This document shows positions 24,291-48,894 of a stretch of 64,000 bases of DNA, piece after piece. Both the position numbers and the translations under genes were made by a program. Every line of letters starts with the position of its first letter. Position 1 is the stretch's first letter. Source of the DNA: a virus; IMG/VR virus record IMGVR_UViG_3300002835_007523, positions 1 through 64,000 of that record, one strand, 5' to 3'. The notes under the pieces were generated by a model. The model had not been told where the DNA came from. It saw only the letters and a list, made by a program, of their open reading frames with translations, and did not search any database.

Positions 24291-24355
24291 GGGTTCAAAT
24301 TGACAATTTTTACTTATACTAGCTTACTGGGTAAATCCCTCGAAGGAGAAAACTA

Positions 24356-25732: not shown

Positions 25733-25775
25733 CCGACGGGTAAGAACTAATAGTTACTTAGGAGGTAACAAATAA

Positions 25776-26078
25776 ATGGCAAATACAGTAAAGAAGCTGT
25801 TCCGCGGCAACGTGGCAACATCTGCAGCAGATGTGTACACAGTGCCATCAGCTACTACTGCAGTAATCACCAATATCGTGCTAACAAACACCACTAGCAA
25901 CGTATTGACTGGAACAGTAAAGCTATCTACACATGAAGTGCTCTCTGCAGTAACAGTTCCTGCAAACGGCATTTTTGCTCTAGACATTAAGCAGGTTATG
26001 GATGCATCTGAAACCGTAAACGCAGTTGGTTCTGCTGCAGGTCTAAAGCTTCACGTCTCAGGGATGGAGATTAACTAA
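25776..26078 (+). CDS. small beta-rich fibre adaptor protein
   Basis: YTVPSATTAVITNIVLTN...HVSGMEI; similar to 34778..35110. Confidence 0.7.
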   Translation: MANTVKKLFRGNVATSAADVYTVPSATTAVITNIVLTNTTSNVLTGTVKLSTHEVLSAVTVPANGIFALDIKQVMDASETVNAVGSAAGLKLHVSGMEIN

Positions 26079-26080
26079 CA

Positions 26081-28927
26081 ATGGGAGCTCTAGTCTATCC
26101 TTCAACATCTGGCCAAGGCGTAGGTGCATTAACCTATAGCTTTGCTGCCGCTCCTGGTGCTGAATACAACACCACTGAATTAAATGCTAACGGAATCTAT
26201 GAGTTTCGTGCTCAAGAAGAGCCACTAACCGTAGCTATCTACGCTGTTGGTAATCTTACTTCTCCTATTGAGACAGTAGCTCTTGCTAAGAATAAAGCAT
26301 TTACTCATAATGGAACCATTGCTCGTATCCGTATTTTGAGCTCATCTACTGGTGGAAACACTGCTGGTACTGGTTCAACACTTCTTATTATTAAGTACAG
26401 CTCTTCAACACCATCTCGTACAGGATCTGCAATCGATGGTCTTGGCGATGTTTACGCACACACTGAGAAGTCAACTGACTGGTTTGCTTACGAAGGTTAC
26501 GGAATGAATACCAGCCGTAACCCAATGACAGCTCGTCTTGATGGAACTGGAAGCACTGCAGCTTGGGTGTGCTGGACATATAACTCAGCCGGAGATGGCG
26601 TATACCGTTTCCGTAACACCCCAAGTACAGGACAAGGAATTGGTACCTCCTCAACTACCTTCTCAGGTATTGCTGGAAACTTCTTCTTCAAGTCCATGTC
26701 CAATACGACAAATACTTGGACTCGTCTTGCAGACATTCCTCTACCTCCACAAGCTATTGAAAACGGAACTACATTTGCTGAGCAGCGTCTACGCCGTGCA
26801 GTAATGTGGGATACCGGAGATGACCTTATTGTTTGGTTCCGCTGCGTTGATAACAGAACCCAGACAATTAACTCTGTTCAATATACTTCAGTAGATACAT
26901 ACCTATACATCTATACAAAAGCTACTGATACTTGGACATTTGTTGGTGCGTGGAACCTTGGCGCAACAGGCTATAACTCATATGTTGATGGTCCTCAAAT
27001 GTCGTTTACTCACGTTATAAATGGCGTTCGCTTCTGGTACAACTGGCAGCAAGAGCGTTCAAGTAACGGATTTATTCGTTATAACCTAGCAACAGGTGTT
27101 CGTGAAGCAATCACTTCAGCAGCTGATACTTGGCATGAAGGATCTTATGTAAATAACTACTTCCTTGCTAGCCCAACTCAAGGTATTGGTAACACTGATG
27201 GTGGTTCAACTGACTATCAGATTTACGACCCAACTAACAACGTATGGGCAAAGGTAACCCCCCCATCACGTCTAAATGAGGCATCAACTTGGTTCCGTGG
27301 CGGTCAGATTTTCCGTTACAACGCAACTTCGTTTGGTGTTATCGGTCGTCGTACATATACCACAGACAACACAGCTCCAGGAAACGGAGACCGCTATTGG
27401 GGACGCCGTCTATGGATCTATGACACCGCTACTCAGTCACTTGATCGTTGGTTAGATAAGTCCTTTGAAATGGAAGATTTCTACCCAGTAGCAATGCGTC
27501 CAGGACATGATACTTATGGTTCAACCTTTATTTGGCAGCCAGCAGGTTCTTCTTGGAATGGTCGTTTCTTCCGCTTCCGAAACAACTATGGTAGTTCAGC
27601 GCTATCTCGTCATAACCACGACTATGTAGACGTTACAAGGCCAAAGAAAGTAGATCTTATTGGAGCATATCGTCCTCGTGGCGAAATGTCTGTAGGTCTA
27701 AATACCGTTCTTGCATTTGGTTTACACAGAAACCCATTCGCTAGAGCTGTGATCTGGGCATCCTATGGTCAAAATACCTGGGATTCTGAAGTTCGTGGAG
27801 GACGTTCAGCTGGATCAACATATGACTCTACAGGTAGAAGCCGACATGGTTTTGAGAGCATGGGTGCAGAACTCATCTCTACAGCTGGAGAAATTTATCC
27901 AGTTCTAAATGATATGCAAATCATTCAATCTATTTACGACCCACAAATGCGTCGTTATTATGTAACTGGTTTTAGACCATCTCGTTTGGGATTTGTTTGG
28001 AACAACGGTAACTATCCATTCTCCACATTCAACCGCTCTCCATGGCGTCAAGTTTCAGCGTGGGTCGAAGAAGATACCGGAAGATTTGAGTATCTAGATT
28101 ACAACCAGGGTGGTGATGATACATCTGACGATACCTCTAGAACATGGGCGCAAGGTCAACCGTTCATTTCCTCAACTGAAAACCCAGGTGAAATCTCAAT
28201 CTTCTCAAACGGCCGTGCATATCGTCCAGGAGTCCACTTCATTCGTCCATACGACTCTGATGTGTGGGAAGTTTATAATATCTGGAACCTCTTTAACTGG
28301 GAGTATGGATTTACACAACGCTTCGTAAGCTATACCTGGATCAGCTCACAGTGGCAAGGAGATGGCCGCGTACCTCAGACCTATACATTTACACATGACG
28401 CAATCTCTAATAACTTTGTGCAAGTTGTTAAGTTTGGAGCCGGTCGTCTAAGCCGTACAGGTATTCCAGAGGGAACAATATTCTGGGATGGACGTTCACT
28501 CCTTCAGTATAGCCAGGAATCTGGTGTAGCCCCATTTGCTGCTACACAAACCGGATGGCGTCGTTTGCATACAACCTCTAGCCCATATTGGTCTCAAGAC
28601 ACTACTATGAACCGTACACCTCACGTATGGTACGACGGTCGATATGCGATCTGCGAAAAGCCTGACAGCACAGGTTACTATGTCTTTGATATGGACAACC
28701 TTTCTGCAGAGCCTAAAGTAATTGTTTCTCATATCCCAATTAACTCTCGTCCTACCCCTAACTATCAGGGCGGTAACTCTGGAAGTATTGGTAGCTTCTG
28801 GTGGTACTTCTCCTATAATAAGGCTTGCCTCGGTGGCGTAGAAATCATCGCAGGTGGTTCTGAACAGGACAGCGTACGTACTTGGAGAAATCCAAACTAC
28901 TACCTAGTAAGATCTAAGGAGGCATAA
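26081..28927 (+). CDS. large beta-rich (Kelch/propeller-like) putative receptor-binding protein
   Basis: Repeated (I)YD..T.TW blade motifs (YTKATDTW, IYDPTNNVW, IYDTATQS); aromatic-rich. Confidence 0.6.
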   Translation: MGALVYPSTSGQGVGALTYSFAAAPGAEYNTTELNANGIYEFRAQEEPLTVAIYAVGNLTSPIETVALAKNKAFTHNGTIARIRILSSSTGGNTAGTGSTLLIIKYSSSTPSRTGSAIDGLGDVYAHTEKSTDWFAYEGYGMNTSRNPMTARLDGTGSTAAWVCWTYNSAGDGVYRFRNTPSTGQGIGTSSTTFSGIAGNFFFKSMSNTTNTWTRLADIPLPPQAIENGTTFAEQRLRRAVMWDTGDDLIVWFRCVDNRTQTINSVQYTSVDTYLYIYTKATDTWTFVGAWNLGATGYNSYVDGPQMSFTHVINGVRFWYNWQQERSSNGFIRYNLATGVREAITSAADTWHEGSYVNNYFLASPTQGIGNTDGGSTDYQIYDPTNNVWAKVTPPSRLNEASTWFRGGQIFRYNATSFGVIGRRTYTTDNTAPGNGDRYWGRRLWIYDTATQSLDRWLDKSFEMEDFYPVAMRPGHDTYGSTFIWQPAGSSWNGRFFRFRNNYGSSALSRHNHDYVDVTRPKKVDLIGAYRPRGEMSVGLNTVLAFGLHRNPFARAVIWASYGQNTWDSEVRGGRSAGSTYDSTGRSRHGFESMGAELISTAGEIYPVLNDMQIIQSIYDPQMRRYYVTGFRPSRLGFVWNNGNYPFSTFNRSPWRQVSAWVEEDTGRFEYLDYNQGGDDTSDDTSRTWAQGQPFISSTENPGEISIFSNGRAYRPGVHFIRPYDSDVWEVYNIWNLFNWEYGFTQRFVSYTWISSQWQGDGRVPQTYTFTHDAISNNFVQVVKFGAGRLSRTGIPEGTIFWDGRSLLQYSQESGVAPFAATQTGWRRLHTTSSPYWSQDTTMNRTPHVWYDGRYAICEKPDSTGYYVFDMDNLSAEPKVIVSHIPINSRPTPNYQGGNSGSIGSFWWYFSYNKACLGGVEIIAGGSEQDSVRTWRNPNYYLVRSKEA

Positions 28928-28930
28928 CAA

Positions 28931-29200
28931 ATGGCGTTTACAGTAGAAGTAGATAAGAAAGTAGCCACTATTCTTCGAGATGGTGGAGTGTTTCTTACTC
29001 AATCTTTTGATCCTCGTGAAGAGGGCAACACTCCGTTTGACTCAAATGCAGACGCTCAAGCATGGGCAGAAGCATTTGTTGCTCAAACAGAGGTTGAAGA
29101 AGCTGCAAAGGCTGCTGAAGAAGCGGAAAAGAAAGCCGCTTTTGAAGCAGAAGAAGCAGCTCTAAAGGCCGCTATTGAGGCACCTGCAGAAGAAGAATAA
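28931..29200 (+). CDS. small acidic protein, possible fibre chaperone
   Basis: Q.FDP...PF...AQAWAE motif; follows the large fibre gene. Confidence 0.6.
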   Translation: MAFTVEVDKKVATILRDGGVFLTQSFDPREEGNTPFDSNADAQAWAEAFVAQTEVEEAAKAAEEAEKKAAFEAEEAALKAAIEAPAEEE

Positions 29201-29215
29201 TTAAATAGCTTGTAG

Positions 29216-29250
29216 AATAGGCGGGTCTATATGGCCCGCCTATTTTATTT
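29216..29250 (+). terminator. intrinsic terminator
   Basis: AATAGGCGGGTC/GGCCCGCCTATT followed by a T-rich tail. Confidence 0.8.
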
Positions 29251-29261
29251 GGAGTAACTAT

Positions 29262-29945
29262 ATGAAAGTACTAATATCTACTCAATCGCCAAATCCCCAG
29301 ATATCTGCTTTTTTTGCAAAAAGCCTTGCTGAAACCTACGCTCTGGGAGAAAAAGAAGGTATTGAATTTAGATTTATGTGGTCTCCGGATGAGTTTAGTT
29401 TTCGAAACGAAGCGGCAGAAATTGTAATAGAAAAAAACTATGACGCCCTAATATTTATAAAGCCACATATTCAATGGGTAGCTACAGATTTAGTAGGGAT
29501 AATTAAGGGCGAATCTTTAATTGAGGGCGTACCAACAAAACAATACTTTGCTCCAGAACAATTTTATAAAGCAGTATTAAATGACTCCCCTAATCAGGAT
29601 TCAGATAGTCCTATAACTGCAAAGCTTATGGATCTAGATATGGTAGTAATTAAGAAAGAAGTATTTGATCGCATAAATGACTTTGTAATCAAGGCTAACT
29701 ATCCAAAAGAAGACGGAATAATTGAACAAATACCTATTTATTTTTATTCGTCCACGGATGAAAATGGCCCTATGAGTCAAGACATTAACTTTTGTAAGGC
29801 TGCAGAAAAAGCAGAGATACCAATAGTTATAAATAAAGACATGGCTATATTTGAGCATGTATGGGTTCCATATAAAACATACATAGGCAACGATATTAGA
29901 AAAGACTTTATCAATAAGGGGTTTGAAGAAGTTGAGCAACTTTAA
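29262..29945 (+). CDS. GT-A glycosyltransferase-like protein with degenerate motifs
   Basis: RN....YDALIFI(KPH)I.W, VVIKKEVFD and SQDINFC follow the GT-A pattern but lack DxD. Confidence 0.55.
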   Translation: MKVLISTQSPNPQISAFFAKSLAETYALGEKEGIEFRFMWSPDEFSFRNEAAEIVIEKNYDALIFIKPHIQWVATDLVGIIKGESLIEGVPTKQYFAPEQFYKAVLNDSPNQDSDSPITAKLMDLDMVVIKKEVFDRINDFVIKANYPKEDGIIEQIPIYFYSSTDENGPMSQDINFCKAAEKAEIPIVINKDMAIFEHVWVPYKTYIGNDIRKDFINKGFEEVEQL

Positions 29946-30462
29946 AAGTCAAGCCGGACAAGATCTATTTGCACTGTCTAAAAATGACTATAAAGTTGGT
30001 GGAACTTTTTTAGAGATAGGCGCCTATGACTCGGAAAGCATATCTAATACATATGTTTTGGAGGTAGAGTATGGCTGGACGGGGTTAGCTATAGAGATAA
30101 TTCCAGAAAGAGCAGAGCAGTACATCAGTAAACGGTCCTCCCCATGCATAGTAGCCGACGCAACAAAACTAGACTATAAAAAGCTTTTAATGGGGCACGA
30201 ATTGCCCCAGACCATAGATTATTTATCTCTAGATATAGAGCCTGCTACACAGACCCTAGAAGCTTTAGAAAAAATATTAGAATCTGGCTATGAATTTAAA
30301 ACAATAACTTTTGAGCATGACTTGTACGTAAGCAAAGACAACCTTATTATAAAAAATAAACAAAAAGAGATTCTTTTAGATAAAGGATATGTCTTGTATA
30401 AAGAAAACGTGTGCTCTCAAAATAACCCTAGGTTTCCTTTTGAAGATTGGTGGGTAAAATGA
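29923..30462 (+). CDS. FkbM-family SAM methyltransferase
   Basis: SQAGQD, FLEIGAYD..SNT, WTGLAIE and IDYLSLDIE motifs. Confidence 0.85.
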   Translation: MKKLSNFKSQAGQDLFALSKNDYKVGGTFLEIGAYDSESISNTYVLEVEYGWTGLAIEIIPERAEQYISKRSSPCIVADATKLDYKKLLMGHELPQTIDYLSLDIEPATQTLEALEKILESGYEFKTITFEHDLYVSKDNLIIKNKQKEILLDKGYVLYKENVCSQNNPRFPFEDWWVK

Positions 30463-31472
30463 TTTACATATCCCTTGCAGCATACAGAGACCCATTGCTT
30501 CAATCCACTATAGACCACGCATTTAAAATGGCAGAAAGACCAGAGGAGATCAGGGTTGGATGCTATATAACTGTTCTTCCAAATACTTCGGGGGAAGAGG
30601 ATAAGTATGGGATAAAAAATAACCATGGTGGAAAAGTAATGTCTACAATAGACTTTGCTGGAGAATGGTTTAGTGTATGTAAGGCTAGGAACTTAGCTAA
30701 TCAGTGGCTTACTGAGGAGTACGATTATGTACTACAGATTGATTCTCACACAAGATTTGAGCCTAATTGGGATACTTGGTTAACAGAGCAACATAAGAAA
30801 ATAGATTATCCAAAAGCAATAATTGCTGGTTATCCAAAACCTTGGTGGCCAAAGGGTAGCCCTGAACAATCGTATAACTTAGAGGATGGATCCTACGGAA
30901 TGAAGGATCACTATAATGATACGCTTTTTGAGCAGACTAGCTTTAATGTATTTGGATCTAGAGGAGAGTTTTTAAACGGATATGAATTAAAGCCGGTACA
31001 TTACTACGTTAAAAAACAAGTAAAAGAAGGTCTGGATAGGGGCTGGTACACGTCTGGTTGCTTCTTTTTTGCTCCAGCAAAATATGCTATAGACCTTCCA
31101 CAGCCCGAATGGATTGTTTTTTGGGGTGAAGAAGTCTATAACAGTATGCGTGCATTCACTCATGGGTGGAACGTATACATACCTATAAAAGTACCCATAC
31201 ATCATTTATTTCCAGGATACGAAGTTATTCAAAAATCTAATGTTCCTAAATTAGCTATGAATAAGCCAAGTCAAGATTTTCCAGAAGAATGGAAAAAAGA
31301 AAAAATGGCTGGAACAGATCGATGTATAGACGCCATTGCTGCTGGAACTATTGGGCCTGAGCATTTTGGTACTGAACGGCCTATTTCTGAGCTCTATGAA
31401 TACCTAGGATATGACCTATCTGAGATGTTTCCTAAGTGGCGAGAAGAATATTGGCAAAGACACGGTAAATAA
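30459..31472 (+). CDS. GlcNAc-transferase (GT60/Skp1-GlcNAcT-like)
   Basis: IYISLAAYRDP, ARN, YVLQIDSHTRFEPNWD and FWGEE...RAFTHGW motifs. Confidence 0.85.
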   Translation: MIYISLAAYRDPLLQSTIDHAFKMAERPEEIRVGCYITVLPNTSGEEDKYGIKNNHGGKVMSTIDFAGEWFSVCKARNLANQWLTEEYDYVLQIDSHTRFEPNWDTWLTEQHKKIDYPKAIIAGYPKPWWPKGSPEQSYNLEDGSYGMKDHYNDTLFEQTSFNVFGSRGEFLNGYELKPVHYYVKKQVKEGLDRGWYTSGCFFFAPAKYAIDLPQPEWIVFWGEEVYNSMRAFTHGWNVYIPIKVPIHHLFPGYEVIQKSNVPKLAMNKPSQDFPEEWKKEKMAGTDRCIDAIAAGTIGPEHFGTERPISELYEYLGYDLSEMFPKWREEYWQRHGK

Positions 31473-31493
31473 AGCGCCTTATACTGTCATACT

Positions 31494-31859
31494 ATGCCTA
31501 TAGATTTTCCAGATACCCCCACGCTCAATCAACAGTTCACTGTTGGTGAGACTACTTGGTATTGGAATGGATCAGTTTGGCGCCTTTTAGTATCTGAAGG
31601 TGTGCAAGGAGATTTAGGACCTACAGGACCTATTGGACCAACAGGTCCTACCGGTCCCGGCATAACCGGTCCTACGGGCCCTACAGGGCCTGGAATAACC
31701 GGCCCAACAGGACCTACTGGACCAGTGTCTACAACTCCTGGACCTCTAGGGCCTACTGGACCTACTGGACCAGAAAACGACAACGTAGATGGTGGCGTTC
31801 CAAACTCGGTATACGGCGGCGGCATTACTCTCAACGGCGGAAATGTGCAAGGAGTTTAA
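31494..31859 (+). CDS. short collagen-like protein
   Basis: IDFP.TP...W.WNG..W head, GPT repeats, DGG tail. Confidence 0.8.
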
Positions 31860-33593
31860 ATGGCAGTAAAGATTCAGTTTAGACGAGGCACTGCTTCTGA
31901 ATGGAACTTGGCAAACCCAATTCTTTCTCAAGGTGAAGCAGGATTTGAAACAGACACTGGACGTTTCAAAGTAGGTAACGGTTTAACTCCTTGGAACTCA
32001 TTAGTTTATTCCTCAGGTGTTACTGGACCAACAGGACCTACACCTACAGTTACAGTTGGTACAACTACAACTTTAAATCCTGGAGTAAACGCCTCGGTTG
32101 CAAATAGCGGAACAGCAACTGCCGCAGTTTTAAATTTTGGTATTCCTCAGGGAGCTACAGGCCCACAAGGAATACAAGGACCCACTGGTCCTACAGGTCC
32201 AACTGGAGCTCAAGGCATTACTGGTCCAACCGGTGCTGCATCACAAGTTACTGGACCAACAGGACCAACGGGCCCAACGGGTGCACAAGGAGTTACGGGC
32301 CCTACAGGCGCAGCTTCTCAAGTAACCGGACCTACAGGCCCAACCGGTGCCACAGGACCTCAAGGCGTCCCAATTACTCTTAAAGGATCTAAAGCAACTG
32401 TTGGTGATTTGCCGTCAACAGGTAACGCTTTAAATGACGCTTGGATCGTGGATGCTGACGGAGATGTCTACGTTTGGGATGGAACACAGTGGTATAGCGC
32501 AGGACAGATTGTTGGCGCAACCGGCCCAACTGGACCAGATGGCGCAGATGGCGCAGATGGCGCAGACGGTGCTCAAGGTCCTACCGGTCCACAGGGAGAT
32601 TTAGGCCCTACCGGTCCATCTGGAGTTATTTCAGTAACTGGTCCAGTAACAAATACTGGAACCCCTACAGCTGCAGTACTCGGTCTAGATCAATCGCTAC
32701 TATCTATATCTAACACACAAGTAACTGGTCTTGGAACCGCTTCCACAAAAAACATACCTGTTACAGGAAATGCTTCAAATACTGAGGTTGTATACGGAAC
32801 CGATACTCGCCTATCAGACACCCGCACCCCTACTGACGGCACCGTAACAACAGCAAAGATTGTTGATTCTAATGTTACTGAGGACAAATTAGCAACAAAT
32901 TCAGTTACTACTAGTAAGATTGTAGATCTAAACGTAACAACTGCCAAGTTAGCTGATCTTAATGTCACTACTGGTAAGATTGCTGATCTAAATGTCACCA
33001 CTGCAAAGCTTGCAGATGCAAGCGTTACTTTGGCAAAGCTTAACTCAAATGCCTTTACAAATCTTGCAGGAAACCTAAATCAAAGCCTATCTATAGTAGA
33101 TGTTGCCCCAAGATACGGAAACACTACGGGAACAATGTCTAGCGGAACTGTTTACTTCTCAATGTTTACCCCAATGTGGACAGCCACTATAAGCTCAATA
33201 AGTGTGGTTTCCGGAACAACTCAGGCAACTGGAGCAACGCTAGTACGTTTTGGTTTATATACGGTTGTAAATGACACAGCAACACTTGTAGCCCAAACAG
33301 CTTCAGATACAACAATCTTTAGTTCAACTAACACGCTGTATAACAGGGTGTTTAGTACAGTTGGCGGTCTTCCAGCAACCTATACGCTTCAAGCAGGAAC
33401 TCGATACGCTATTGGAATCATTATAGTAGCAACTACGCCTGGAAACGTGTACACAGCTTTTGGTCCAAACCCATCTGCAATCAGTACACTATCACCAAGA
33501 ATTACTGGAGCAGTGGCTCTGCAGTCAGACCTACCGGCATCAGTAGCATCGTTTGCATCAACTACCGTTGGACCTTGGGGAAGACTATCATGA
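31860..33593 (+). CDS. collagen-containing fibre protein with Mtd-like N-terminal domain
   Basis: [12 protein letters not shown]...[19 protein letters not shown]; GPT repeats; VTTAKLAD repeats. Confidence 0.85.
32843..33040 (+). repeat. 30-bp/10-aa coding repeats (VTTAKxxDxN)
   Basis: [60 protein letters not shown]. Confidence 0.8.
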
Positions 33594-33703
33594 CAACTAA
33601 AGTAAGCTTAGGAATAGACCCTGCCACAGGCGCAGAAAAAATCGAGGTACGAGACGACGAGGGAACAGTAATAGGTTACGACCTAGTATTCCCTGAAGAA
33701 TAA
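33590..33703 (+). CDS. 37-aa protein after the fibre gene (not in track)
   Basis: [37 protein letters not shown]; ATGA overlap. Confidence 0.6.
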
Positions 33704-33720
33704 CGGCCATCGGAGGGCCA

Positions 33721-34794
33721 ATGAAAATAGCTGTATACACGATTGCATTAAACGAAGAGCAGTTTGTAGAAAAATGGTATCAGTCAGCAAAAGAAGCTGA
33801 CTATCTACTAATTGCAGATACTGGTTCTACTGACCTAACTAAAAAATATGCCAGGAACTACGGCATAAATGTCATTGACATCTCTGTAAAACCTTGGCGT
33901 TTTGATGATGCTCGTAACGCTGCCCTTGCAGCTTTACCCAACGACATTGATATATGTATAGCCTTGGATATGGACGAAGTTCTAGTGCCTGGATGGCGTT
34001 GGCACCTAGACCGAATGTCAAAAGATACTACCCGTCCAAGATACAAGTACACGTGGAATTGGAATGAAGACGGAACTCCAGGCCTTCAGTACGGTGGAGA
34101 TAAGATACATGCTCGTCACGGCTATCGGTGGAAACACCCAGTTCATGAAGTATTAACTACCGACCGTATAGATGAGATTCAAACCTGGATAGGTTTAGAG
34201 ATTCACCACCATGCAGACAACTCAAAGCCTAGATCTCAATATATGCCCCTTCTTGCACAGTCTGTAAAAGAAGACCCATATGACGATAGAAATGCCTTTT
34301 ACTACGCTAGAGAATTATTCTTCTATGGACAATTTGATGCGGCCATTGAAGAATTTAAACGTCACCTATCTTTACCAAAAGCGGTATGGAGACCAGAACG
34401 AGCAGCATCTATGAGGTATATATCTAAACTTATGAAAGAATTTACAGAAAAAGAAGCTTGGCTTAAGAAGGCAGTTAATGAGGCTCCCGATAGAAGAGAG
34501 CCCTATGTAGAACTAGCAAAGCTGTACTATGAAAATAACCGTTGGTTTGACTGTCTAGATGCCGCAGAAAACGCACTTGAAATTACTGAAAAGCCCCTAG
34601 AGTATTTATGTGAGGAGTTTGCCTGGGGTTCTGCGCCCTGGGACTATGCGGCTATAGCGGCCCATAACCTAGGTTTATCGGATAAAGCCATTCAATACGG
34701 CACTAAGGCCGTAGAATTAAACCCGAATGATCAACGCCTAATAACAAACTTGGCTTTCTACACTAAGGAGCACCCTCTTGGCGACAATATATAA
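33721..34794 (+). CDS. GT2 glycosyltransferase with C-terminal TPR repeats
   Basis: IALNEE, DTGSTD, FDDARN, LDMDE, HPVHE; helical TPR C-terminus. Confidence 0.9.
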   Translation: MKIAVYTIALNEEQFVEKWYQSAKEADYLLIADTGSTDLTKKYARNYGINVIDISVKPWRFDDARNAALAALPNDIDICIALDMDEVLVPGWRWHLDRMSKDTTRPRYKYTWNWNEDGTPGLQYGGDKIHARHGYRWKHPVHEVLTTDRIDEIQTWIGLEIHHHADNSKPRSQYMPLLAQSVKEDPYDDRNAFYYARELFFYGQFDAAIEEFKRHLSLPKAVWRPERAASMRYISKLMKEFTEKEAWLKKAVNEAPDRREPYVELAKLYYENNRWFDCLDAAENALEITEKPLEYLCEEFAWGSAPWDYAAIAAHNLGLSDKAIQYGTKAVELNPNDQRLITNLAFYTKEHPLGDNI

Positions 34795-35110
34795 AGTCCT
34801 GGGTCAGCTGGCTGCAGCTGCATCTAATGCTGGAGAAACCCTATATGCAGTTCCTTCTGGATCCTCAGCCGTAGTATCTAGCATCACAGTCTGTAATCGC
34901 GGCACAGCCGCAGCAACCTATAGAATTGCTATACGAAAAGCTGCTGCCCCATTAGCTAATAACCAGTATCTTGTTTACGACACAAACATTCCTGGTAATA
35001 CTACGACTAGCTACACCCTTGGAGTTACTCTTGCCAGCACAGATGTAATAACAGTTGCTAGCGCATCTACAGCTAACCTAACCTTTCAAGCTTTCGGCTC
35101 TGAGATTTAG
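34778..35110 (+). CDS. small beta-rich fibre adaptor protein
   Basis: ATIYKVLGQ...LYAVPS...FQAFGSEI; AAGGAG SD and TTG start. Confidence 0.75.
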   Translation: MATIYKVLGQLAAAASNAGETLYAVPSGSSAVVSSITVCNRGTAAATYRIAIRKAAAPLANNQYLVYDTNIPGNTTTSYTLGVTLASTDVITVASASTANLTFQAFGSEI

Positions 35111-35118
35111 GGGCTACT

Positions 35119-35688
35119 GTGGCTATAACTAATAATGGCCAGCCTCAAGGCCCAATACAATTTACAGACGCTGCCTCCGGAGCACGAGTATTTATTGGAG
35201 GCACAACTCCAACAACTCCTGCCCCAGGAGATATCTGGATAGATTCTGATGTACAGAATAATGCTGGAAAAAACACTATATCTGAAACCACATTATCAAC
35301 AGCCTCTGTGTCTCTTACAGTCCCAAACTCTTATAAAGACGTATGCCTAGTACTAAAAAACGTACAGCTATCTACAAACGGAGACATACTTGTCAGATTA
35401 AATGCTGACTCTACCGGAGCCAACTATCTTGGCGGATCAGCTCTACACACAATTAGTTCTGTAAAAGCTGGCGGTAACAACCTTATAGTAATAACCATAC
35501 AGGAGAGCCAGGCACTTACTCCTAAATTTTCAAGAATAGAGGGAGTATACGTAAACTCCTCTAATGCTTTAGCCTCTGTAACTGCTGCAGGTGGGTATAG
35601 TCAAACTACCGCATTAACAACAATTAATTTAGCAACCTCAACCGGCACCTTTGCTGGCGGAACTGCAACCGTATATGGAGTTAACTAA
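35119..35688 (+). CDS. fibre-associated structural protein
   Basis: P.PGDIWID motif; C-terminal GTATVYGV. Confidence 0.7.
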   Translation: MAITNNGQPQGPIQFTDAASGARVFIGGTTPTTPAPGDIWIDSDVQNNAGKNTISETTLSTASVSLTVPNSYKDVCLVLKNVQLSTNGDILVRLNADSTGANYLGGSALHTISSVKAGGNNLIVITIQESQALTPKFSRIEGVYVNSSNALASVTAAGGYSQTTALTTINLATSTGTFAGGTATVYGVN

Positions 35689-35924
35689 TGGCAATTAAAA
35701 GATGGAATGGAACAACTAGCTCCTGGGAAGCATTTGGAAGTCCCCAGGTAAACATTGCTGCTTTAGGTATAACCGCAGAATCTATTGGCGCAGTATCAAA
35801 AACTAATGGATCTATGACCTCTTCAAGCACTAGCTTGACCGCAGTTAGAAATATGACGGTATCCACAAGTGCTCCAACATCTGGTCAAGGATCTGATGGA
35901 GACGTCTGGCTGCAGTACGTATAG
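35688..35924 (+). CDS. small fibre-associated protein
   Basis: STSAPTSGQGSDGDVWLQY motif. Confidence 0.7.
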   Translation: MAIKRWNGTTSSWEAFGSPQVNIAALGITAESIGAVSKTNGSMTSSSTSLTAVRNMTVSTSAPTSGQGSDGDVWLQYV

Positions 35925-35933
35925 GACTAACAA

Positions 35934-37601
35934 ATGCCAGGTTCTATTAAAAATGGCGGTATCTGGAGATCCGCAACCGGTCTATACATAAAAGTAGGCG
36001 GTACTTGGCGTACCGTCACTTCAGCGTATGTAAAGGTTGGCGGACAATGGAAGCAGTGGTTTGCTTCTAAAATTCAAGACGCATTTAATAGGACATCAAC
36101 CGCTGCTGGTTTAGGCACTGCAGATAGCGGACAGGCTTGGAATGCTACTTCAGGAAACTGGCGCATTAACGGCTCTAATCAAGCACAGAGCGATGATTCA
36201 GCAAGCAATTATCCAATAGTCTCTGCAAATCTTGGAAACACCGACGTAAAAGTTCAAGCGGATGTATCAGGTGGAGTTGGTCCAGCATTTTGGGTAAGCA
36301 GCGCCGGATCATGGTGGGCTGCAGTCCCTCGTTACACTACCGTTACAACAAACTCTACATCTATAGTATGTGATCAAAACTTGGCATCATGTAACGGATC
36401 TGGATGTAGTCCTTCAGGAAGTTGTTGCTCAGGAGTATCTGAAAGCTCCTCCAGCAACTGCAATGGTGGGTACGTACAATGTTCAAACTCTTCATGCAGC
36501 GACTATCCAAATAGATGTGCAGGACCTTTTAGCAGCACAAGCGGTGGCGGACAAACCTGTAATGCTGGTTGCAGTTCAAATCAAAGCGGATGTCCTGCTG
36601 GAAGTTGTTCGTGTTCTTCCTCTACTTCTGGTGGAACCCAATCCTGTACTGGTGGAAAAACAGACGTATTTCAAGGCTCTAACTGCTCTAGTCTTGGTGG
36701 AAACTGTGGTTCTGGGCCGTTTACTGAAACGGTAAATAGCAGCTATTGCGGTGGAAACGCTTGCTATGGAAGCGACTTTATGACTGCTCTTACAGCACCA
36801 GGTTGCGGTCTTCCTGTCGATAACGGAAGTTACCAATGTTCTGGTGGACAAGTATACGGATCATTTAATGGACAGCCATTTGGATGCTATACATATAGCT
36901 CTGGTGGAACTCAATATCAAGTAAATGATGGAGGAACCTGTTCAACTTTAGGGTCTGGTTGGTCACAAGTAGGGTGTTCAAACTGCGCTGGTATGGGCCC
37001 TTGCGGTACTGGAGGATTTGTTTGCTGCTCTAAAAGTGGAACAGCCGGGTATACCTACGTTGGCCCAGGAACATATGTAACTAACTACTGTAAGGGAACT
37101 GGAGAAGTCCCATTTAGTTATACAAACTACTATTGTTATACTGCTCTTGTCGGCAGCCCATCAGTTACTACCTATAACTACTGTACGGGATATACTCAGA
37201 ACCCAGTAGTAACCACGTACTATGCATATACTTCTTCTACAACAACAATTACTCGCTCATGCTATACGGGTACTAGAACTATTTCAAATCCAATTACTAA
37301 TTATAAGACTGAGTTAGTGCTACTAAGCTCTGTCTCTGGCTCTGTAGTTAGCTCAGCATCATCTACAATCTCTGATAATACCTCTGGGTTTACAACTGTA
37401 GGGTCAGTGTACGTACAGACTGGAGGAAATGCCATATCTGCATATGCGTATTCCTCAGCAAACCTTGGTGGAAGCCAACTTGGCGCCACCCTTACCCACA
37501 CAGCCTCAAACCCTACTAAGGGAACTTCTGTTGGTATAATTAAGACGCCATCTACGGGAAGTCAAGGCTCTACAGCCGATAACTTCTTAGCCACTATATA
37601 G
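35934..37601 (+). CDS. Cys-rich putative fibre tip or receptor-binding protein
   Basis: KVGGTW repeats, DAFNR-type beta-sandwich halves flanking an insert with 32 Cys. Confidence 0.8.
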   Translation: MPGSIKNGGIWRSATGLYIKVGGTWRTVTSAYVKVGGQWKQWFASKIQDAFNRTSTAAGLGTADSGQAWNATSGNWRINGSNQAQSDDSASNYPIVSANLGNTDVKVQADVSGGVGPAFWVSSAGSWWAAVPRYTTVTTNSTSIVCDQNLASCNGSGCSPSGSCCSGVSESSSSNCNGGYVQCSNSSCSDYPNRCAGPFSSTSGGGQTCNAGCSSNQSGCPAGSCSCSSSTSGGTQSCTGGKTDVFQGSNCSSLGGNCGSGPFTETVNSSYCGGNACYGSDFMTALTAPGCGLPVDNGSYQCSGGQVYGSFNGQPFGCYTYSSGGTQYQVNDGGTCSTLGSGWSQVGCSNCAGMGPCGTGGFVCCSKSGTAGYTYVGPGTYVTNYCKGTGEVPFSYTNYYCYTALVGSPSVTTYNYCTGYTQNPVVTTYYAYTSSTTTITRSCYTGTRTISNPITNYKTELVLLSSVSGSVVSSASSTISDNTSGFTTVGSVYVQTGGNAISAYAYSSANLGGSQLGATLTHTASNPTKGTSVGIIKTPSTGSQGSTADNFLATI

Positions 37602-37609: not shown

Positions 37610-37849
37610 ATGAGCGATAGACCAGCACGTCCCTGGGATTTGTTTAATAAAAACATAGGCCGGGTAGAAAGCGACATAGCCGTAAAGAGACTAGAAATCT
37701 GCAAAGGCTGTGAAAAGTTTATAAAAGCAACAACCCAATGTAAGGAGTGCGGCTGCATAATGAAGCTAAAGACTAAGCTACCAAATGCATCCTGCCCCCT
37801 ACACAAGTGGGAAGCAGTATCCGACAAAATCTATAAGGAAGAAATCTAA
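37610..37849 (+). CDS. small Cys-motif protein (DUF6171-like)
   Basis: RLEICKGC...QCKECGCIM.LK.KL..ASCPLHKW. Confidence 0.8.
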   Translation: MSDRPARPWDLFNKNIGRVESDIAVKRLEICKGCEKFIKATTQCKECGCIMKLKTKLPNASCPLHKWEAVSDKIYKEEI

Positions 37850-38076
37850 TGGCAGAAACAGTAGATAAAGCAAACATACCGCCTATTAAGATAGCTTTTG
37901 TAATTGATGGAGAAGTTGTAGACGTTCTTCATACTGATTCAAGACTTGCCGCTATCTTTTTAAGTGAACCTAAAATTGTAGACGTTACCGACCTTTATGA
38001 AGCAGGATCACCTGTATTTGTAGGAGCTATCGATAACGAGGATGGAACCTTTACAAATCCTGAGAAGAAGGACTAA
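37849..38076 (+). CDS. hypothetical protein
   Basis: IAFVIDGEVVD...AIFLSEPKIVDVT; TAATG-coupled to the previous gene. Confidence 0.75.
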   Translation: MAETVDKANIPPIKIAFVIDGEVVDVLHTDSRLAAIFLSEPKIVDVTDLYEAGSPVFVGAIDNEDGTFTNPEKKD

Positions 38077-43919: not shown

Positions 43920-46901
43920 ATGGCAACTCAGCAGATCTTTTCAGCTAGTGATGATGAGAATCCCTTTTCATCACAAAGTGTTGATAAGTTCTTTAAGTCC
44001 ATGGAAAAAGGACTGCAGCAGGACTTAAAACTTATTAAAGAATTCCGTAAAGTAACGGAAGATATTAAGAAAAACATGCAAGAAGCCCTCAAAGCTGGGG
44101 GCGGATCTAGCGCCGGATCAGGAAAAGTTGGTCTTGGTGCTATGCCAAATAAGGCAGTTGTTGGTGGTTTACTAGCCGCTGGAGCTGCCTATGGCGGAAC
44201 AAAAATGTTTATGGGAATGGCGCCCAATACAATGGCCGCTGTTACCCAAAGAATGTCTGCTGACACCGTTGCTGGCATCAGTGGACTAAATGCACGTCAA
44301 GTAATACTTCGTTCAAATGCTAGAGTAGGTAACGGCGCAACAAGCGCTATGGGCCCAACTATGGCTCAAATGAACATGTTGTACGGTGGTGGATACACTG
44401 CAACTAGCCTAAGCTCTAGAAACGTAATGTCCCAACTAGGCGGACTAAGCGCAATAACTGGCGGAACAAATGAGCAGATGGCTCAAGGCATGGCGGGCAT
44501 TAATGCTATGCGTTTCTTACGTATTGGTGTGCAAGCTCGTGACTCTAAGGGAAATCTACGTCCGCCAAACCAATTAATTAATGAAACTTATCGTTTCTTG
44601 TACGGTGGACGAAAAATAACCCCAGAGCAAGCAGCTATGGTTTTAAACCCAGGATCAAAGGGATATCAGACGATATCAATGATCGCTGGTGGTGATTCTA
44701 ATCTTATGTCTATTTTGCAGATGGGTATTATTGCTCGTGCCAAAAAAGACTCACCATTAAGTAAAAAAGATTTAGGAAATGCTCAAAGATCATTAGATGT
44801 AATGGGTGTAGGAAAAGAAAGTCCAATACGAAAACTCTTTAACTATAACACCAGTGAAGCTAGGAAACTACAGGCAACAGAAAAAGGATTAGTTGGCGGA
44901 TATAACACAGCACTTAGCGCAACCACTGCTGTAAACAATGGTTTTAGTAGTTTAGCAGAAGCAACTGATGGGTTGACTCAAGCATTTATGGGACTAAAAG
45001 GATTTTTACAAACCCTTCCTGGAGCGGGAAATACCGGTGCAACACTAGCGGGTATGGGAAGCTCGATAATGGGTATGGGATCAGCAGCCCTTCAATTTGG
45101 AATGCTTCGTATGATGATGGGTAAAAGCGCAGTGCCCGCTGCACTTACTGCAGGAGCCAGCCGGTTAGCCGCTGGAGCCGGACTTAGTGCTGTTGGTGCT
45201 GGAGCAACTGGCGCAATGTTTAGCAAAGGATCACTGTTAAAAAGAGGTGGTAGAGCTGCATTAGCTGCTGGTGCGTATTATGGGATGGAAAAACTTCAAG
45301 GATTTTTAAATAAAGCTAATGTACCTAGCTGGCTTCGTAGAGGTGGAAACGTAGCTTTTGATGCTCTACAAGGAGGAGTAACTGGAGGAATTGCTGCAGG
45401 ACCTTACGGTGCTTTAGCGGGCTCAGTTGTAGGCACAGGCGCTGGAGTAGTCAATCCTTATGGTCAAGGTGGAGGAGACTGCGCTCACGGAAATATAGGC
45501 TCCCATAACTGTGGAGGAATGGGTGGTGGACAAGACAACATGGTCTTGCAAATGCCAGTTCCTCCAGGAACACGAGTAACTTCAGGTTTTGGTCCAAGAG
45601 ACAATTCAAAAAACCCACAGATATCTAGAAACCACACAGGTATTGACTACGCGGTAAAGGTAGGTACGCCAATTGTTGCCGCCGGAGCTGGCGTAGTAAC
45701 TGAAACCGGATTGCACAGACAATACGGAAACTATGTGATTATTAGACACGGATCAAGATCTACTCTTTATGCTCACTTAAGTAAAATCTTAGTTAATAAG
45801 GGCGAAAAAGTTGTTGCTGGACAGCAGATTGCACTATCTGGAGGTAAGAAGGGTGCTCAAGGAGCAGGAACCTCTACAGGTCCACACCTTCACTTTGAGG
45901 TAAGAGCAAATGGTGGAGTTGGAGCTCAAGGAAGAAAAGATCCTCAAGGACTATTTGGAAAAGCATTTAGCTTTATAAAGGGCAAAGTAACCTCAGGACT
46001 TAACTTCTTAAAAAGAACTTCTAACAGGCTTTTTGGAACAAATTTTGCGTACTCTGATGCTGGAGATGACAAGTTTAACTTTAATGCAAGAAAGCACGAT
46101 ATAACAAAGAAAACGCTAGGTCAATATAACAGTGCTAGCGTCTCAGATATTATTGCTGGATTAAACTTTAGTCCTACGAGCTATTCAGAGCTATCTAAGC
46201 ATATAAATCCAAACGACCCCAAATTTGGAAAGATATTAAACCAAAACTATGACGAGGGTCATGGAAACGAAAAAGGCATTTATGGAGGAAGCCGACAGGC
46301 TCTCATGCAGGCCCTACATGCACAGGGGTTTAGAGGTAAATCCCTAAGAACCGCTTTTGCAGTTGCTCTTGCTGAATCCGGAGGAAGGCCATCAGCTATA
46401 GGAGACGTAGATCTACAAGATAAGAAGTGGGGCCCAAGCTACGGAATCTTCCAGATTAGATCTTTAAAGAATTGGCAAAATCATGATGGAAAAGGCTCAT
46501 CTGATCCATGGAGAAATGCTAAAAAGCTTAGAGACCCTAAATTTAACATAGAAGCTGCCTGGGTAAAAAGCAGCAAGGGTAAAAAGTGGGAGGCTTGGTC
46601 TGCTTACAATAATGGGGCGTTTACTAAATTCTTAGATGATGCCGATAGAGTTGCCACTAAAGCAGGAATTGGTGGCGGTCCAGAAACAGCTGGCGGATTT
46701 AACATGGCTCATGTGGCACCAACAGAGACTAGTCACAGCCCTGGAGCTAGAAGCGTATCTTCAAACTCAAATGTAAACATAAAGGTAAATATGCAGGTAA
46801 CTCTTGCCAATTCTGGGCCAGGTGAAGCTCAGAGGCTTTTGCGTACCTTTAAAGAGGGTATTGAAAAGGAACTAGAGATTAAAGGAATTGGTGGATACTA
46901 A
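43920..46901 (+). CDS. tape measure protein with M23 peptidase and lysozyme-like domains
   Basis: Ala/Gly helical N-half; HTGID, YAHL and HLHFE (M23); AVALAESGG and SYGIFQI (lysozyme-like). Confidence 0.9.
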   Translation: MATQQIFSASDDENPFSSQSVDKFFKSMEKGLQQDLKLIKEFRKVTEDIKKNMQEALKAGGGSSAGSGKVGLGAMPNKAVVGGLLAAGAAYGGTKMFMGMAPNTMAAVTQRMSADTVAGISGLNARQVILRSNARVGNGATSAMGPTMAQMNMLYGGGYTATSLSSRNVMSQLGGLSAITGGTNEQMAQGMAGINAMRFLRIGVQARDSKGNLRPPNQLINETYRFLYGGRKITPEQAAMVLNPGSKGYQTISMIAGGDSNLMSILQMGIIARAKKDSPLSKKDLGNAQRSLDVMGVGKESPIRKLFNYNTSEARKLQATEKGLVGGYNTALSATTAVNNGFSSLAEATDGLTQAFMGLKGFLQTLPGAGNTGATLAGMGSSIMGMGSAALQFGMLRMMMGKSAVPAALTAGASRLAAGAGLSAVGAGATGAMFSKGSLLKRGGRAALAAGAYYGMEKLQGFLNKANVPSWLRRGGNVAFDALQGGVTGGIAAGPYGALAGSVVGTGAGVVNPYGQGGGDCAHGNIGSHNCGGMGGGQDNMVLQMPVPPGTRVTSGFGPRDNSKNPQISRNHTGIDYAVKVGTPIVAAGAGVVTETGLHRQYGNYVIIRHGSRSTLYAHLSKILVNKGEKVVAGQQIALSGGKKGAQGAGTSTGPHLHFEVRANGGVGAQGRKDPQGLFGKAFSFIKGKVTSGLNFLKRTSNRLFGTNFAYSDAGDDKFNFNARKHDITKKTLGQYNSASVSDIIAGLNFSPTSYSELSKHINPNDPKFGKILNQNYDEGHGNEKGIYGGSRQALMQALHAQGFRGKSLRTAFAVALAESGGRPSAIGDVDLQDKKWGPSYGIFQIRSLKNWQNHDGKGSSDPWRNAKKLRDPKFNIEAAWVKSSKGKKWEAWSAYNNGAFTKFLDDADRVATKAGIGGGPETAGGFNMAHVAPTETSHSPGARSVSSNSNVNIKVNMQVTLANSGPGEAQRLLRTFKEGIEKELEIKGIGGY

Positions 46902-48604
46902 TGGCTGCTCCGCTACCCGTATATTACACAATTAAAGCTTACGAAAAGATTGTAGAAAACTTAAACCCAACCGCAGAAGACCAGCAAGGATCTCAAGGTG
47001 GTTGGATTGAGATTACTACAGATAGCAAGCTAGTTAACTATAAGCATCCAGTCAAGTATGTTTTGCAGTTCTTTTTGCAGAGCGATATACTCGGCCTTAA
47101 TCCACTAGAGGATAGCCAAGGCGTTAATATTGCTGGTGGTGATGGAACAGTTTTTAAGCAATGGGTAGACGATAATGCTGACAAACTAAAAGTTAAGGGT
47201 TGGAACACATATCAAGACAATAGGTTTGAGCTTATTGTTACAGCTAAAGTAAAAAGTGCTTCAGGTACCCCTAAGTTTAAAGCACAGACTGTTCCAAACT
47301 CAAACGTAAACTCTAGCCCTAATTATTATACCGTAAATATAAAAGCAGGAAAAAAGATTCCTTCAGTTAAGTTTACCGAGGCACAATCAGAGCCAAATAA
47401 ACCAAATGAAGTAAAAAATGACGTGACTGAACAAGGTCAGGGATACACCCAGTGGAATGAGTGTAAAAAAGAATGGGTAGTAGTTACCTATGCTCAGACC
47501 ACTAAAAATAACGTATTTGGATATGACGTATATTTAATAAAAAGAGACGTAAATGGCACACAGCTAAGTAGACAGCTATTAGGATTTGAGCCATCTACTG
47601 CTACTAAACGACCTTATTCTGATATTGGAAGAAAAGCTCTTCAAGAAGCATATCAGTGCGTAAAGGCTTCAGAAGACGCCCCAAATGTTCCGACACCCTC
47701 TGTTACGGTGCAGGAGTACCCACAAGACGAAAGAATAAACCCACCTAACCATAGAATTACTCGAGATGTCTCTTTATCTCAAAAACTTTATTATTCTTTG
47801 TCTGAGGCTAAGCGACGAGGATCTAAGACAAATCCTGGACTTTATTTTGCTAACTCTACGGAAGAGGCTAGACAACGAGCTGAACAGCGTTACTTAGACT
47901 CAACAGCTAGAGGACGTCTTGGAACTATATTTCAGGATAAAGATAGTGCTATAGCCCTAAACACCAACAATGACGATAAAAAGCCTTGGGGTTTTAGATT
48001 TATATATAACCCCCAAACTATTGAGTATTCTACCGGTGCAGATATGTCTGTAGACTGGATGCTAAGCTCTAAAGATCCTGCAAACTATATTGGTGGAAAT
48101 ACCGTTGTTAACTTTATGCTGTATTTAAACAGAATTGCAGACATGACTGAACTACGTCATTTAAAGTCTAATCCAACCGATTACATTAATGGATACCCCA
48201 GAAAACTTACCGCAGAATCAGTTGCCGGACTACTAAACAGAGGCACGGAGTACGACATAGAGTTCTTATACCGGGTATTGAATGGAAGCCCAAGACCAAG
48301 CATAAATGGTCTTCTTACCTATACAGTAAACGGCAAACCAGCTGTAACTTCAGATTTTGGATATATAACTGGAACCCCTGTGTGGATAAGATTTCACGAA
48401 AACCTTAGGTATAAAGGCTCTATAAACAGTATTTCTGTAAATCACCTAATTTTTAATGAAGAAATGGTGCCTATGTTTTCAACAATGTCTGTATCGTTTA
48501 CTCGTTACCCAATTACCGGAGAAACAGACCCTGCAGTCATTGCAGCCTACTCAGAAAAGATTGCTAAAGACCTTAAAGCTGGAGAGGAGCCACCTAGAAC
48601 ATAA
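46901..48604 (+). CDS. baseplate or tube-initiator protein with long N-terminal extension
   Basis: F.YNPQTI and PV...F....YKG.I.SISV....F...MVP tube-initiator pattern in the C-half. Confidence 0.65.
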   Translation: MAAPLPVYYTIKAYEKIVENLNPTAEDQQGSQGGWIEITTDSKLVNYKHPVKYVLQFFLQSDILGLNPLEDSQGVNIAGGDGTVFKQWVDDNADKLKVKGWNTYQDNRFELIVTAKVKSASGTPKFKAQTVPNSNVNSSPNYYTVNIKAGKKIPSVKFTEAQSEPNKPNEVKNDVTEQGQGYTQWNECKKEWVVVTYAQTTKNNVFGYDVYLIKRDVNGTQLSRQLLGFEPSTATKRPYSDIGRKALQEAYQCVKASEDAPNVPTPSVTVQEYPQDERINPPNHRITRDVSLSQKLYYSLSEAKRRGSKTNPGLYFANSTEEARQRAEQRYLDSTARGRLGTIFQDKDSAIALNTNNDDKKPWGFRFIYNPQTIEYSTGADMSVDWMLSSKDPANYIGGNTVVNFMLYLNRIADMTELRHLKSNPTDYINGYPRKLTAESVAGLLNRGTEYDIEFLYRVLNGSPRPSINGLLTYTVNGKPAVTSDFGYITGTPVWIRFHENLRYKGSINSISVNHLIFNEEMVPMFSTMSVSFTRYPITGETDPAVIAAYSEKIAKDLKAGEEPPRT

Positions 48605-48894
48605 TGCCTAACATAAATAGACTATCTAGATATTATGATGGAAAACTTGCCCAGATCTATAACTCAAAAACCAAGCAATATGACATTGCTGTTTTTAAAG
48701 CAGAATCTGATGAAGTTACCTCTTCTTACATAAACTATACCTGGAAGTATGGAGATTCTCTTGCTGCCTTGTCCGATAAATATTTAGGTATTCCGGGATA
48801 CTGGTGGAAGATTATGGAAATAAATCCAGAAATAACAGACCCCTTCTCAATAGAGCCAGGAACAGTTATAAGGGTGCCGTATGTCACAAGATGA
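48604..48894 (+). CDS. LysM/tail-X-like baseplate protein
   Basis: SRY...GDSLAALSDKYLG...WWKIMEINP...PGTVIRVP. Confidence 0.85.
   Translation: MPNINRLSRYYDGKLAQIYNSKTKQYDIAVFKAESDEVTSSYINYTWKYGDSLAALSDKYLGIPGYWWKIMEINPEITDPFSIEPGTVIRVPYVTR

Follow-up and report, generated by a model that had tools for sequence, protein, structure and literature searches.

The 64,000-nucleotide stretch of DNA analysed here (the window) corresponds to positions 1 to 64,000 of the IMG/VR virus record IMGVR_UViG_3300002835_007523. This record is a single contig of 99,093 bp, a complete genome, which carries at positions 35934–37601 on the plus strand an open reading frame (ORF) whose translation is a cysteine-rich protein of 555 residues (P0001, called the query below). 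The gene lies in the virion module. We propose that its product is an adhesin with a concanavalin A (ConA)-like base, one loop of which has been expanded into a nested, disulfide-stapled stalk bearing an exchangeable knob. The protein would be unrelated, but analogous, to the ultralong third complementarity-determining region of the heavy chain (CDR H3) of cow antibodies. We give this reading a probability of about 0.6.

The Split Base Domain

The composition of the protein is extreme, with 91 Ser, 84 Gly, 66 Thr, 32 Tyr, 32 Cys and a single His. All the Cys are located within residues 146–443, and none is present in residues 1–145 or 444–555. An earlier note on this DNA had described this region as an insert splitting a lectin-like domain, and had expected the two flanks to come together in an AlphaFold model. 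An AlphaFold2 model was computed from a 53-sequence alignment (mean predicted local distance difference test score, pLDDT, of 76.7, with values above 90 in the flanks) and compared with all structure representatives.

The top matches were ConA-like sandwiches, in which 149–180 residues were aligned over the range from approximately 45 to 555. They included the carbohydrate-binding module (CBM) CBM66 (4b1m; Z 17.2, 149/165 residues, rmsd 2.4), the C-terminal, receptor-binding domain of mycobacteriophage TM4 gp23 (9n6a; Z 15.1), a baseplate protein of mycobacteriophage Douge (8zdo; Z 14.4) and the CBM2 of the evolved Dit of phage J-1 (5ly8; Z 12.4). Many entries at Z of at least 10 followed, among them legume lectins, ERGIC-53 and the sandwiches of glycoside hydrolase families GH16 and GH43. 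In total, more than 40 further lectins, CBMs and GH16/GH43 proteins passed this value with both flanks used, as expected of the ConA-like fold, a two-sheet jelly-roll sandwich of about 150–200 residues. Because 149–180 aligned residues exceed either flank of about 100 residues, the flanks form one domain. The model thus confirms, at the level of a predicted structure, that both Cys-free flanks build one ConA-like domain and that an insertion of approximately 300 residues lies between them, as the earlier note had supposed. The N-terminal half of the sandwich covers residues 46–145 (positions 36069–36368, plus strand; pLDDT 80–96), and the C-terminal half residues 446–555 (37269–37598, plus strand; pLDDT 90–97).

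The secondary structure assigned by DSSP was continuous across both junctions. The last strand of the N flank, residues 127–154, ran into the stalk, and a 42-residue strand, 426–467, ran from the stalk into the C flank. The base-domain fold is common to the query and to the four named ConA-like modules and heads (Z 12–17), and such heads have the same use on adhesion devices of phages of Gram-positive or actinobacterial hosts. In contrast, no sequence kinship with them was detectable with Pfam or by PDB profile search, and to our knowledge none of the four proteins (4b1m, 9n6a, 8zdo and 5ly8) contains a Cys-rich insert of this sort. A Foldseek search of the whole query model against the PDB found no entry with E ≤ 0.001. 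At rank 12 (E value 1.8) stood the bovine ultralong antibody 6e9i, which was considered noise and rejected as a structural relative.

The sandwich is preceded by a putative docking module, composed of three short beta-hairpin repeats of the G-x-W-K/R type in residues 1–45 (35934–36068, plus strand), for which DSSP gave six short strands. The only PHROGs matches of the protein fell on residues 4–46 (phrog_25859 and phrog_36019, both without known function). Residues 1–45 are missing in some homologues, whose matches begin at query residue ~45.

Parts of the Insert

The outgoing leg of the stalk covers residues 146–301 (36369–36836, plus strand) and contains five modules, with Cys at 146/153/158/164/165 (module 1, five Cys), 176/183/188/195 (module 2, four), 209/213/220/225/227 (module 3, five), 238/251/258 (module 4, three) and 272/277/291 (module 5, three). 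DSSP assigned to this leg the strands 127–154, 169–183 and 196–203 with loops in between. The knob at the tip, residues 302–380 (36837–37073, plus strand; pLDDT ~85), holds eight Cys at 302/318/336/348/351/357/364/365. The return leg, residues 381–445 (37074–37268, plus strand), is made of five Tyr/Thr-rich strands with four Cys: NYCK (C386), YYCY (C401), NYCT (C417), the Cys-free YYAY (428–431) and RSCY (C443). The DSSP strands of this part were 390–402 and 426–467. This partition was the one given in the earlier note, and it was exact in the translation.

When the outgoing modules were paired with the return strands in reverse order, the layers of the query contained 6, 4, 6, 4 and 4 Cys. 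The same numbers had been put forward before, and the pattern exceeds chance in the family, where 173 of 192 proteins have an even count and the module types recur. The boundaries in the query had been drawn by eye by the earlier reader. A rule-based parse, built without reference to parity, recovered modules 1–4 as types that recur in homologues. The types found in the outgoing leg are B5 (C..C..C..CC), E4 (four single Cys), D3 (C-x9-14-C-x3-7-C) and Q5, a five-Cys variant that the query shares with its close homologues.

Evidence for a Nested Order of the Two Legs

Five lines of evidence, none of them dependent on module boundaries set by eye, point to a stalk in which the outgoing and the return leg face each other in mirrored order: mirrored Cys gaps, equal numbers of units on the two legs, layer lengths that match only when mirrored, even modules opposite Cys-free strands, and base layers of swapped polarity. 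The long, nested hairpin suggested by the earlier note is thereby supported. In a mirror test, the vector of Cys-to-Cys gaps was compared with its own reverse, using 2,000 shuffles per protein. Among 169 proteins, 39 were mirror-symmetric at p<0.05 and 24 at p<0.01, the numbers expected by chance being ~8.5 and ~1.7, respectively. The best cases were aperiodic (P0062, P0098, P0186 and P0166; homologues are designated by such numbers throughout). The gaps of P0062 were 5,5,6,8,2,13,2,17,4,3,4 outward and 4,4,6,10,2,13,2,15,4,9,3 backward, those of P0186 were 7,9,9,11,9 and 7,9,9,11,10, and those of P0166 were 7,7,6,5,7,5 and 7,7,5,5,7,5. Judged from the Cys spacing, aperiodic mirror patterns of this kind cannot be reached by tandem repeats.

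The subfamily of the query is asymmetric, with 3–5 Cys per outgoing module and one Cys per return strand. The units were counted by the rule-based parse together with a reading of the sequences. Hidden Markov models of the outgoing and return modules were dropped as a counting tool because outside the most regular subfamily they were too weak to recognise the modules; counting CC doublets or aromatic-Cys strands by regular expression proved too noisy and was dropped as well. The number of odd outgoing units equalled the number of single-Cys return strands over a large range of sizes. It was 3/3 in P0043, P0049, P0071 and P0086; 6/6 in P0015, P0016, P0021, P0028 and P0029, all entirely without Cys in the knob, and also in P0011–P0013 and P0018; 7/7 in P0005, P0007–P0010, P0017, P0019–P0022 and P0025–P0027; and 8/8 in P0006 and P0030. 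P0017 and P0013 have the knob in common, and what separates them is just a single 3-Cys module plus a single strand. The expectation that homologues gain or lose modules and strands in pairs was therefore correct from 3/3 to 8/8 and for P0070 (4+4) compared with P0050 (5+5); it failed for P0032, in which two strands are unmatched.

The lengths of the layers were also related. The period of an outgoing module minus that of the mirrored return strand was constant, at 16 for 3-Cys modules and 18–19 for 5-Cys modules. In P0030, the outgoing periods of 28,26,29,28,33,31 corresponded to mirrored return periods of 12,10,13,12,15,15. Over 90 layer pairs, the correlation was r = 0.63 in the nested order and r = −0.37 in the parallel order. 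The exact permutation p values for length matching were 0.006 for P0030 and 0.008 for P0017.

The position of the Cys-free strands followed the same order. The query has 5,4,5,3,3 Cys in its outgoing modules and 1,1,1,0,1 in its return strands. P0050 has 3,3,2,4,4 outgoing and 0,0,0,1,1 returning (N to C), and P0070 has 3,3,2,4 and 0,0,1,1, that is, one 4-Cys module and one Cys-free strand fewer beside the tip. Even modules are opposite Cys-free strands, in the mirrored order only, in two lineages besides that of the query. Four-Cys modules of the same type were found in P0085, P0104 and P0107, the inserts of which are without single-Cys return strands. This distribution suggests that the extra Cys of a module, usually the second of the CC doublet, staples the return strand.

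In P0024, P0031 and P0033, both base layers were swapped: the N flank is followed by two single-Cys strands, and the C flank is preceded by two 5-Cys CC modules. Such a swap of polarity makes sense only if a module and a strand form one spatial layer.

In the model of P0010, the outgoing strands of 12–15 residues, which comprise the linker and the first Cys of a module, alternated with loops of ~13 residues holding the CC doublet, and the return leg was nearly one continuous strand (384–495). This looping-out agrees with the constant offset of ~16 residues in the length matching. In the query model, the two low-confidence stretches, 203–260 and 403–425, are on opposite legs and roughly mirror each other in position. 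Because a continuous return strand needs hydrogen bonding and ends in the domain where the outgoing leg started, the models imply an antiparallel nested pairing of the legs; with a mid-stalk of low confidence, this is supportive and not decisive. Strand lengths, the only basis of the estimate, give a stalk of roughly 20–30 nm if both legs are extended.

The Knob and Its Neck

The earlier note had placed a variable knob at the end of the stalk, and this was borne out. The median identity between the query and its homologues was 58–64% in the flanks (64% in the N-terminal and 58% in the C-terminal half of the sandwich), 27–28% in the stalk legs (27% in the outgoing leg) and 9% in the knob, scored as the block 291–385. 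The 8-Cys knob of the query, with the motifs VNDGG, GCSNC and FVCC, recurs in P0005, which has a regular 3-Cys stalk, in P0014, in P0024, of swapped polarity, in P0048, and in P0061, which has a very different stalk. Conversely, near-identical stalks carry different knobs with 2, 4 or 8 Cys. Two neck motifs, one in the outgoing leg just below the knob and one in the return leg just after it, flank 73–123 variable residues. They were present together in 17 proteins, the outgoing motif alone in none and the return motif alone in three. Knobs shared between stalks and motifs that occur together thus indicate that the knobs are exchangeable cassettes in a conserved two-legged neck.

Probable Disulfides and Alternative Explanations

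The earlier note had left open whether the layers were held by disulfides or by metal. Parity was examined in 192 homologues of at least 250 residues. The number of Cys was even in 173 of them (binomial p = 3e-32), and the even counts were divided between 88 at 0 mod 4 and 85 at 2 mod 4. These proteins contained a mean of 1.5 His compared with 21 Cys, and ladder-type members had single Cys spaced ~12 residues apart in each leg. The counts and the scarcity of His do not show the sets of four that would be expected of Zn or other metal Cys4 sites. Disulfides rather than Zn(Cys)4 are therefore favoured, on grounds of composition, since the counts are even yet not multiples of four, as expected if every Cys is joined in a disulfide, and His is nearly absent. 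A stack of Zn or Fe Cys4 clusters in place of disulfides would fit a protein made in the cytoplasm and assembled under reducing conditions, and several layers do hold four Cys; a conserved small CxxC protein (DUF6171) adjoins the gene. Nevertheless, multiples of four are not in excess, the isolated Cys pairs of the ladder-type members are too few for Cys4, and the 6-Cys layers are unfit for it. We regard such clusters as highly improbable, so that the disulfide half of the earlier proposal is the one retained.

Parity by itself cannot separate pairing across the legs from pairing between neighbours. The insert could be a string of beads or a solenoid, in which independent linear disulfide domains pair their odd Cys within a leg. 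In that case, the Tyr/Thr-rich repeats with their single Cys would make up a repeat domain of their own. The low confidence of the mid-stalk in the models of both the query and P0010 is compatible with such a linear arrangement, as are the layer lengths of the query, which do not discriminate. It appears distinctly unlikely, however, as the insert is located in a loop of one compact domain and its two ends must meet. Aperiodic mirrored gaps and a length matching seen only in mirrored order are unexpected for linear arrays, the even modules of P0050 and P0070 face Cys-free strands only when mirrored, and the long DSSP strands need partners along the whole return leg. With the same topology, the protein could instead form trimeric fibres or act as a covalent cross-linker, some of the Cys being bonded to further copies or to different proteins of the virion and the insert serving assembly or stability rather than recognition. 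Phage fibres are usually trimers, and symmetric bonds between chains would be consistent with the even counts. The virion of phage Pam3 is disulfide-bonded, its fibres being disulfide-linked to the baseplate (PMC9942802), Milano is likewise a disulfide-bonded virion (PMC10811340), and the M. abscessus phage Jabs is reported to have about 1,700 disulfides linking virion parts (PMC13419713). These examples resemble the present proposal in that virions assembled in the cytoplasm carry many structural disulfides, fibres included. They differ from it in the place of the bonds, which in those phages join or stabilise structural proteins that are conserved and here are proposed within one chain, in a hypervariable projecting element. 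A structural cross-linker should be conserved, and the insert is the most variable part of the protein (9–28% compared with 58–64%). Moreover, knobs have moved between types of stalk, which is common for parts that determine specificity. This alternative seems unlikely.

Several observations weigh against the nested, disulfide-stapled adhesin itself. Virions assemble in the reducing cytoplasm, and the homologues share a phylogeny, so that their Cys counts are not independent events. The length matching of the query taken alone is uninformative (permutation p = 0.75), and the match of its even module with its Cys-free strand has by itself a 1-in-5 chance. P0034–P0041 are swapped in the innermost base layer only, and the remainder of their insert could not be parsed into layers. 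The pLDDT falls below 50 at residues 203–260 and 403–425 of the query and is 50–65 along the mid-stalk of P0010, and the strand pairing in the models was deduced from DSSP and topology only. The receptor-binding role is argued from fold, context and variability. The pairing rule is broken by P0032, which has five outgoing modules and a tip but eight return strands. This protein corresponds to P0030 minus the first two outgoing modules, with all eight return strands kept, two single-Cys strands being unmatched; a shift of the register by two restores the offsets of 16/18. P0032 may be a real variant, in which the two spare Cys pair together, or the result of a repeat collapsed in assembly.

Proposed Architecture

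The nested adhesin that we propose, including its disulfide bonds and their pattern, is inferred from these observations and can be described as follows. The short N-terminal hairpin-repeat module would be followed by the ConA-like lectin domain, one loop of which is expanded into a stalk of ~300 residues and a knob. The chain would go out through five small loop modules, form the 8-Cys knob and return in five short aromatic/Thr strands that run antiparallel to the outgoing modules. The outgoing layer k would lie opposite the return layer k counted from the end. One or two disulfides within each outgoing module would close it. Where a module has an extra Cys, usually the second of the CC doublet, this Cys would staple the return strand; the other modules would face a Cys-free strand. 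With all 32 Cys paired, 16 disulfides would exist, probably formed on exposure to oxygen after lysis. The stalk would act as a rigid spacer of adjustable length, and the knob, possibly together with the lectin face, would bind a ligand on the host surface. Specificity would evolve by the exchange of knobs and by the paired gain or loss of stalk layers.

It is possible that this represents a new architecture, although we would not give the following, more specific description even odds. The insert would be an open-ended, telescopic beta-ribbon of disulfide-closed loop modules stapled to mirrored strands, a germline counterpart of the cow stalk-and-knob. It would hold an exchangeable mini-binder ~20–30 nm from a lectin base, with a length tuned by whole layers and a polarity that is reversible in some lineages.

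Cystine ladders and stacked beta-hairpins are found in mini-proteins such as theta-defensins and granulins, and beta-helical antifreeze proteins are braced by disulfides. Like the proposed stalk, these proteins have antiparallel strands or stacked hairpins on a regular disulfide ladder, and granulins contain CC doublets, as does the query family. They are small and free-standing with a fixed number of Cys, whereas the present element would be an extendable insert of 6 to 64 Cys nested in another domain. The closest architectural parallel is the ultralong CDR H3 of bovine stalk-and-knob antibodies (PMC8602281, PMC10523490). In both cases, a loop of a beta-sandwich gives rise to an antiparallel two-stranded stalk and a small, disulfide-rich, hypervariable knob; in the antibody, the knob does the binding and the length of the stalk is a design variable. 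The bovine base is an Ig domain, and that of the query a ConA-like lectin fold without membership in the Ig type. The stalk of the query would be several times longer than the bovine one (~60–90 residues per return leg) and built of disulfide-closed modules stapled to the return strand. The diversity is somatic in the cow and germline or evolutionary in the phage family, through cassette exchange and paired gain or loss of layers. The resemblance would be functional and architectural only, an analogy and not a homology.

If the model is correct, these phages would recognise their host by a modular, extendable, disulfide-laddered stalk that shows interchangeable knobs from a lectin domain, a principle undescribed for phages. 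It predicts that host range evolves by knob swaps and by the number of layers. It also raises the question of how a protein synthesised under the reducing conditions of the cytoplasm acquires at least 16 disulfides, a process to which the DUF6171 neighbour may contribute. The protein would offer a natural scaffold for engineered binders, as an analogue of the ultralong-CDR scaffold.

Extent and Diversity of the Family

A word-indexed search gave 60 close homologues, and an exhaustive search gave 443 cluster representatives (50% identity) at E ≤ 1e-3, mostly matched in two stretches, the N flank and the C flank. In IMG/VR, 107 matching stretches were found, of which 79 distinct loci were kept, several of them on contigs of ~100 kb. 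Six models were present in BFVD, all entitled "uncharacterized protein, uncultured Caudovirales phage". Pfam contained no family for the Cys-rich protein: the only hit was DUF7937, at 13.2 bits compared with a cut-off of 31, and no granulin or other Cys-repeat family appeared. A PDB profile search gave no sequence relative, and the ESM Atlas no usable match. Neither the protein nor the 12-kb region matched the INPHARED phage records by tblastn or megablast, and full-text literature searches yielded no account of a phage protein of this kind. The family is large, undescribed and entirely without annotation, and it is carried by phages of ~100 kb whose hosts are probably actinobacteria.

Every inspected full-length member had a Cys-rich insert at the same site, the shortest being of ~40 residues. 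Among database proteins, the insert ranged from 6 Cys in these ~40 residues up to 46 Cys, and in ORFs of the IMG/VR loci the number reached 52–64. Examples of homologues with larger inserts are L007:5001-7031 (677 residues, 64 Cys) and L015:703-3162 (820 residues, 52 Cys).

No reverse transcriptase (RVT_1) was matched in the complete 99-kb genome. The gene could be ruled out as the target of a diversity-generating retroelement, the genome being without reverse transcriptase and the gene without long DNA repeats. No tandem or long direct repeats were visible at the DNA level in the gene, and none in L003:4900-6900, a regular homologue whose protein modules are nearly identical. A recent expansion of the slippage type is thus unsupported, and the protein-level repeats must be old and diverged at synonymous sites, since the DNA repeats are absent. 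Recombinational exchange of cassettes together with rare paired insertions or deletions fits the diversity better than either slippage or a retroelement.

Genomic Context and Host

The phage is contractile-tailed. Upstream of the Cys-rich gene, the terminase is found at 13620, the portal at 16097 and the capsid at 18697, followed by a block of ~14 kb with collagen-like fibre genes and glycosyltransferases. The Cys-rich gene comes next, then two small conserved genes, two genes without known function and the sheath at 40712. The gene is therefore inside the structural module, between the collagen-like fibre genes and the sheath, and this synteny is kept in the IMG/VR loci. A location of the protein on the virion is deduced from this context. 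The fibre and glycosyltransferase block (21402–35688) is situated between the capsid and the tail sheath, away from the baseplate genes (46901–56051), and its collagen-like fibres may be appendages of the head or neck. Because the block sits between head and tail genes, the protein may be attached at the baseplate, the neck or the head, and we therefore use the name "virion adhesin" and not "tail fibre".

The upstream gap, listed as intergenic, contains at 35689–35925 an unlisted ORF for a product of 78 residues. The start of this product (IKRWNG..SWE) is similar to the hairpin repeats with which the Cys-rich protein begins, and at its end stands GDVW..Y, a motif typically seen in the N-termini of fibres. 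The product may be a small adaptor for fibres.

The two conserved genes follow immediately on the plus strand. The first (37610–37849) encodes a 79-residue protein with the pattern CxxC...CxxCGC...C, assigned to DUF6171 (29.9 bits for a Pfam cut-off of 27), and follows the Cys-rich gene in 75 of the 79 IMG/VR loci. The second (37849–38076) encodes a 75-residue protein, without family match, that was present in 71 of the 79 loci. Both had 54–88% identity across related loci, far above the conservation of the insert. As all these loci come from related phages, the conservation of the neighbours indicates synteny and not function. The two small proteins, and the DUF6171 protein in particular, might be partners in folding or assembly; a part in folding, in oxidation or in metal-assisted holding is conceivable.

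Three genes of the WhiB family scored above the Pfam cut-off, one in the window (59932–60114) and two further on in the genome (69073–69297 and 94597–94797). WhiB proteins are typical of Actinobacteria and their phages. The nearest sheath in the phage collection was that of Streptomyces phage BRock, with 37% identity. Because of these three genes and this sheath relative, the host is likely an actinobacterium. The G+C content of 40–47%, about 43%, is low beside three WhiB genes that point to such a host. At the tape-measure position after the sheath (43920–46901), a protein of 993 residues combines an M23 peptidase and a lytic transglycosylase, two cell-wall-degrading activities.

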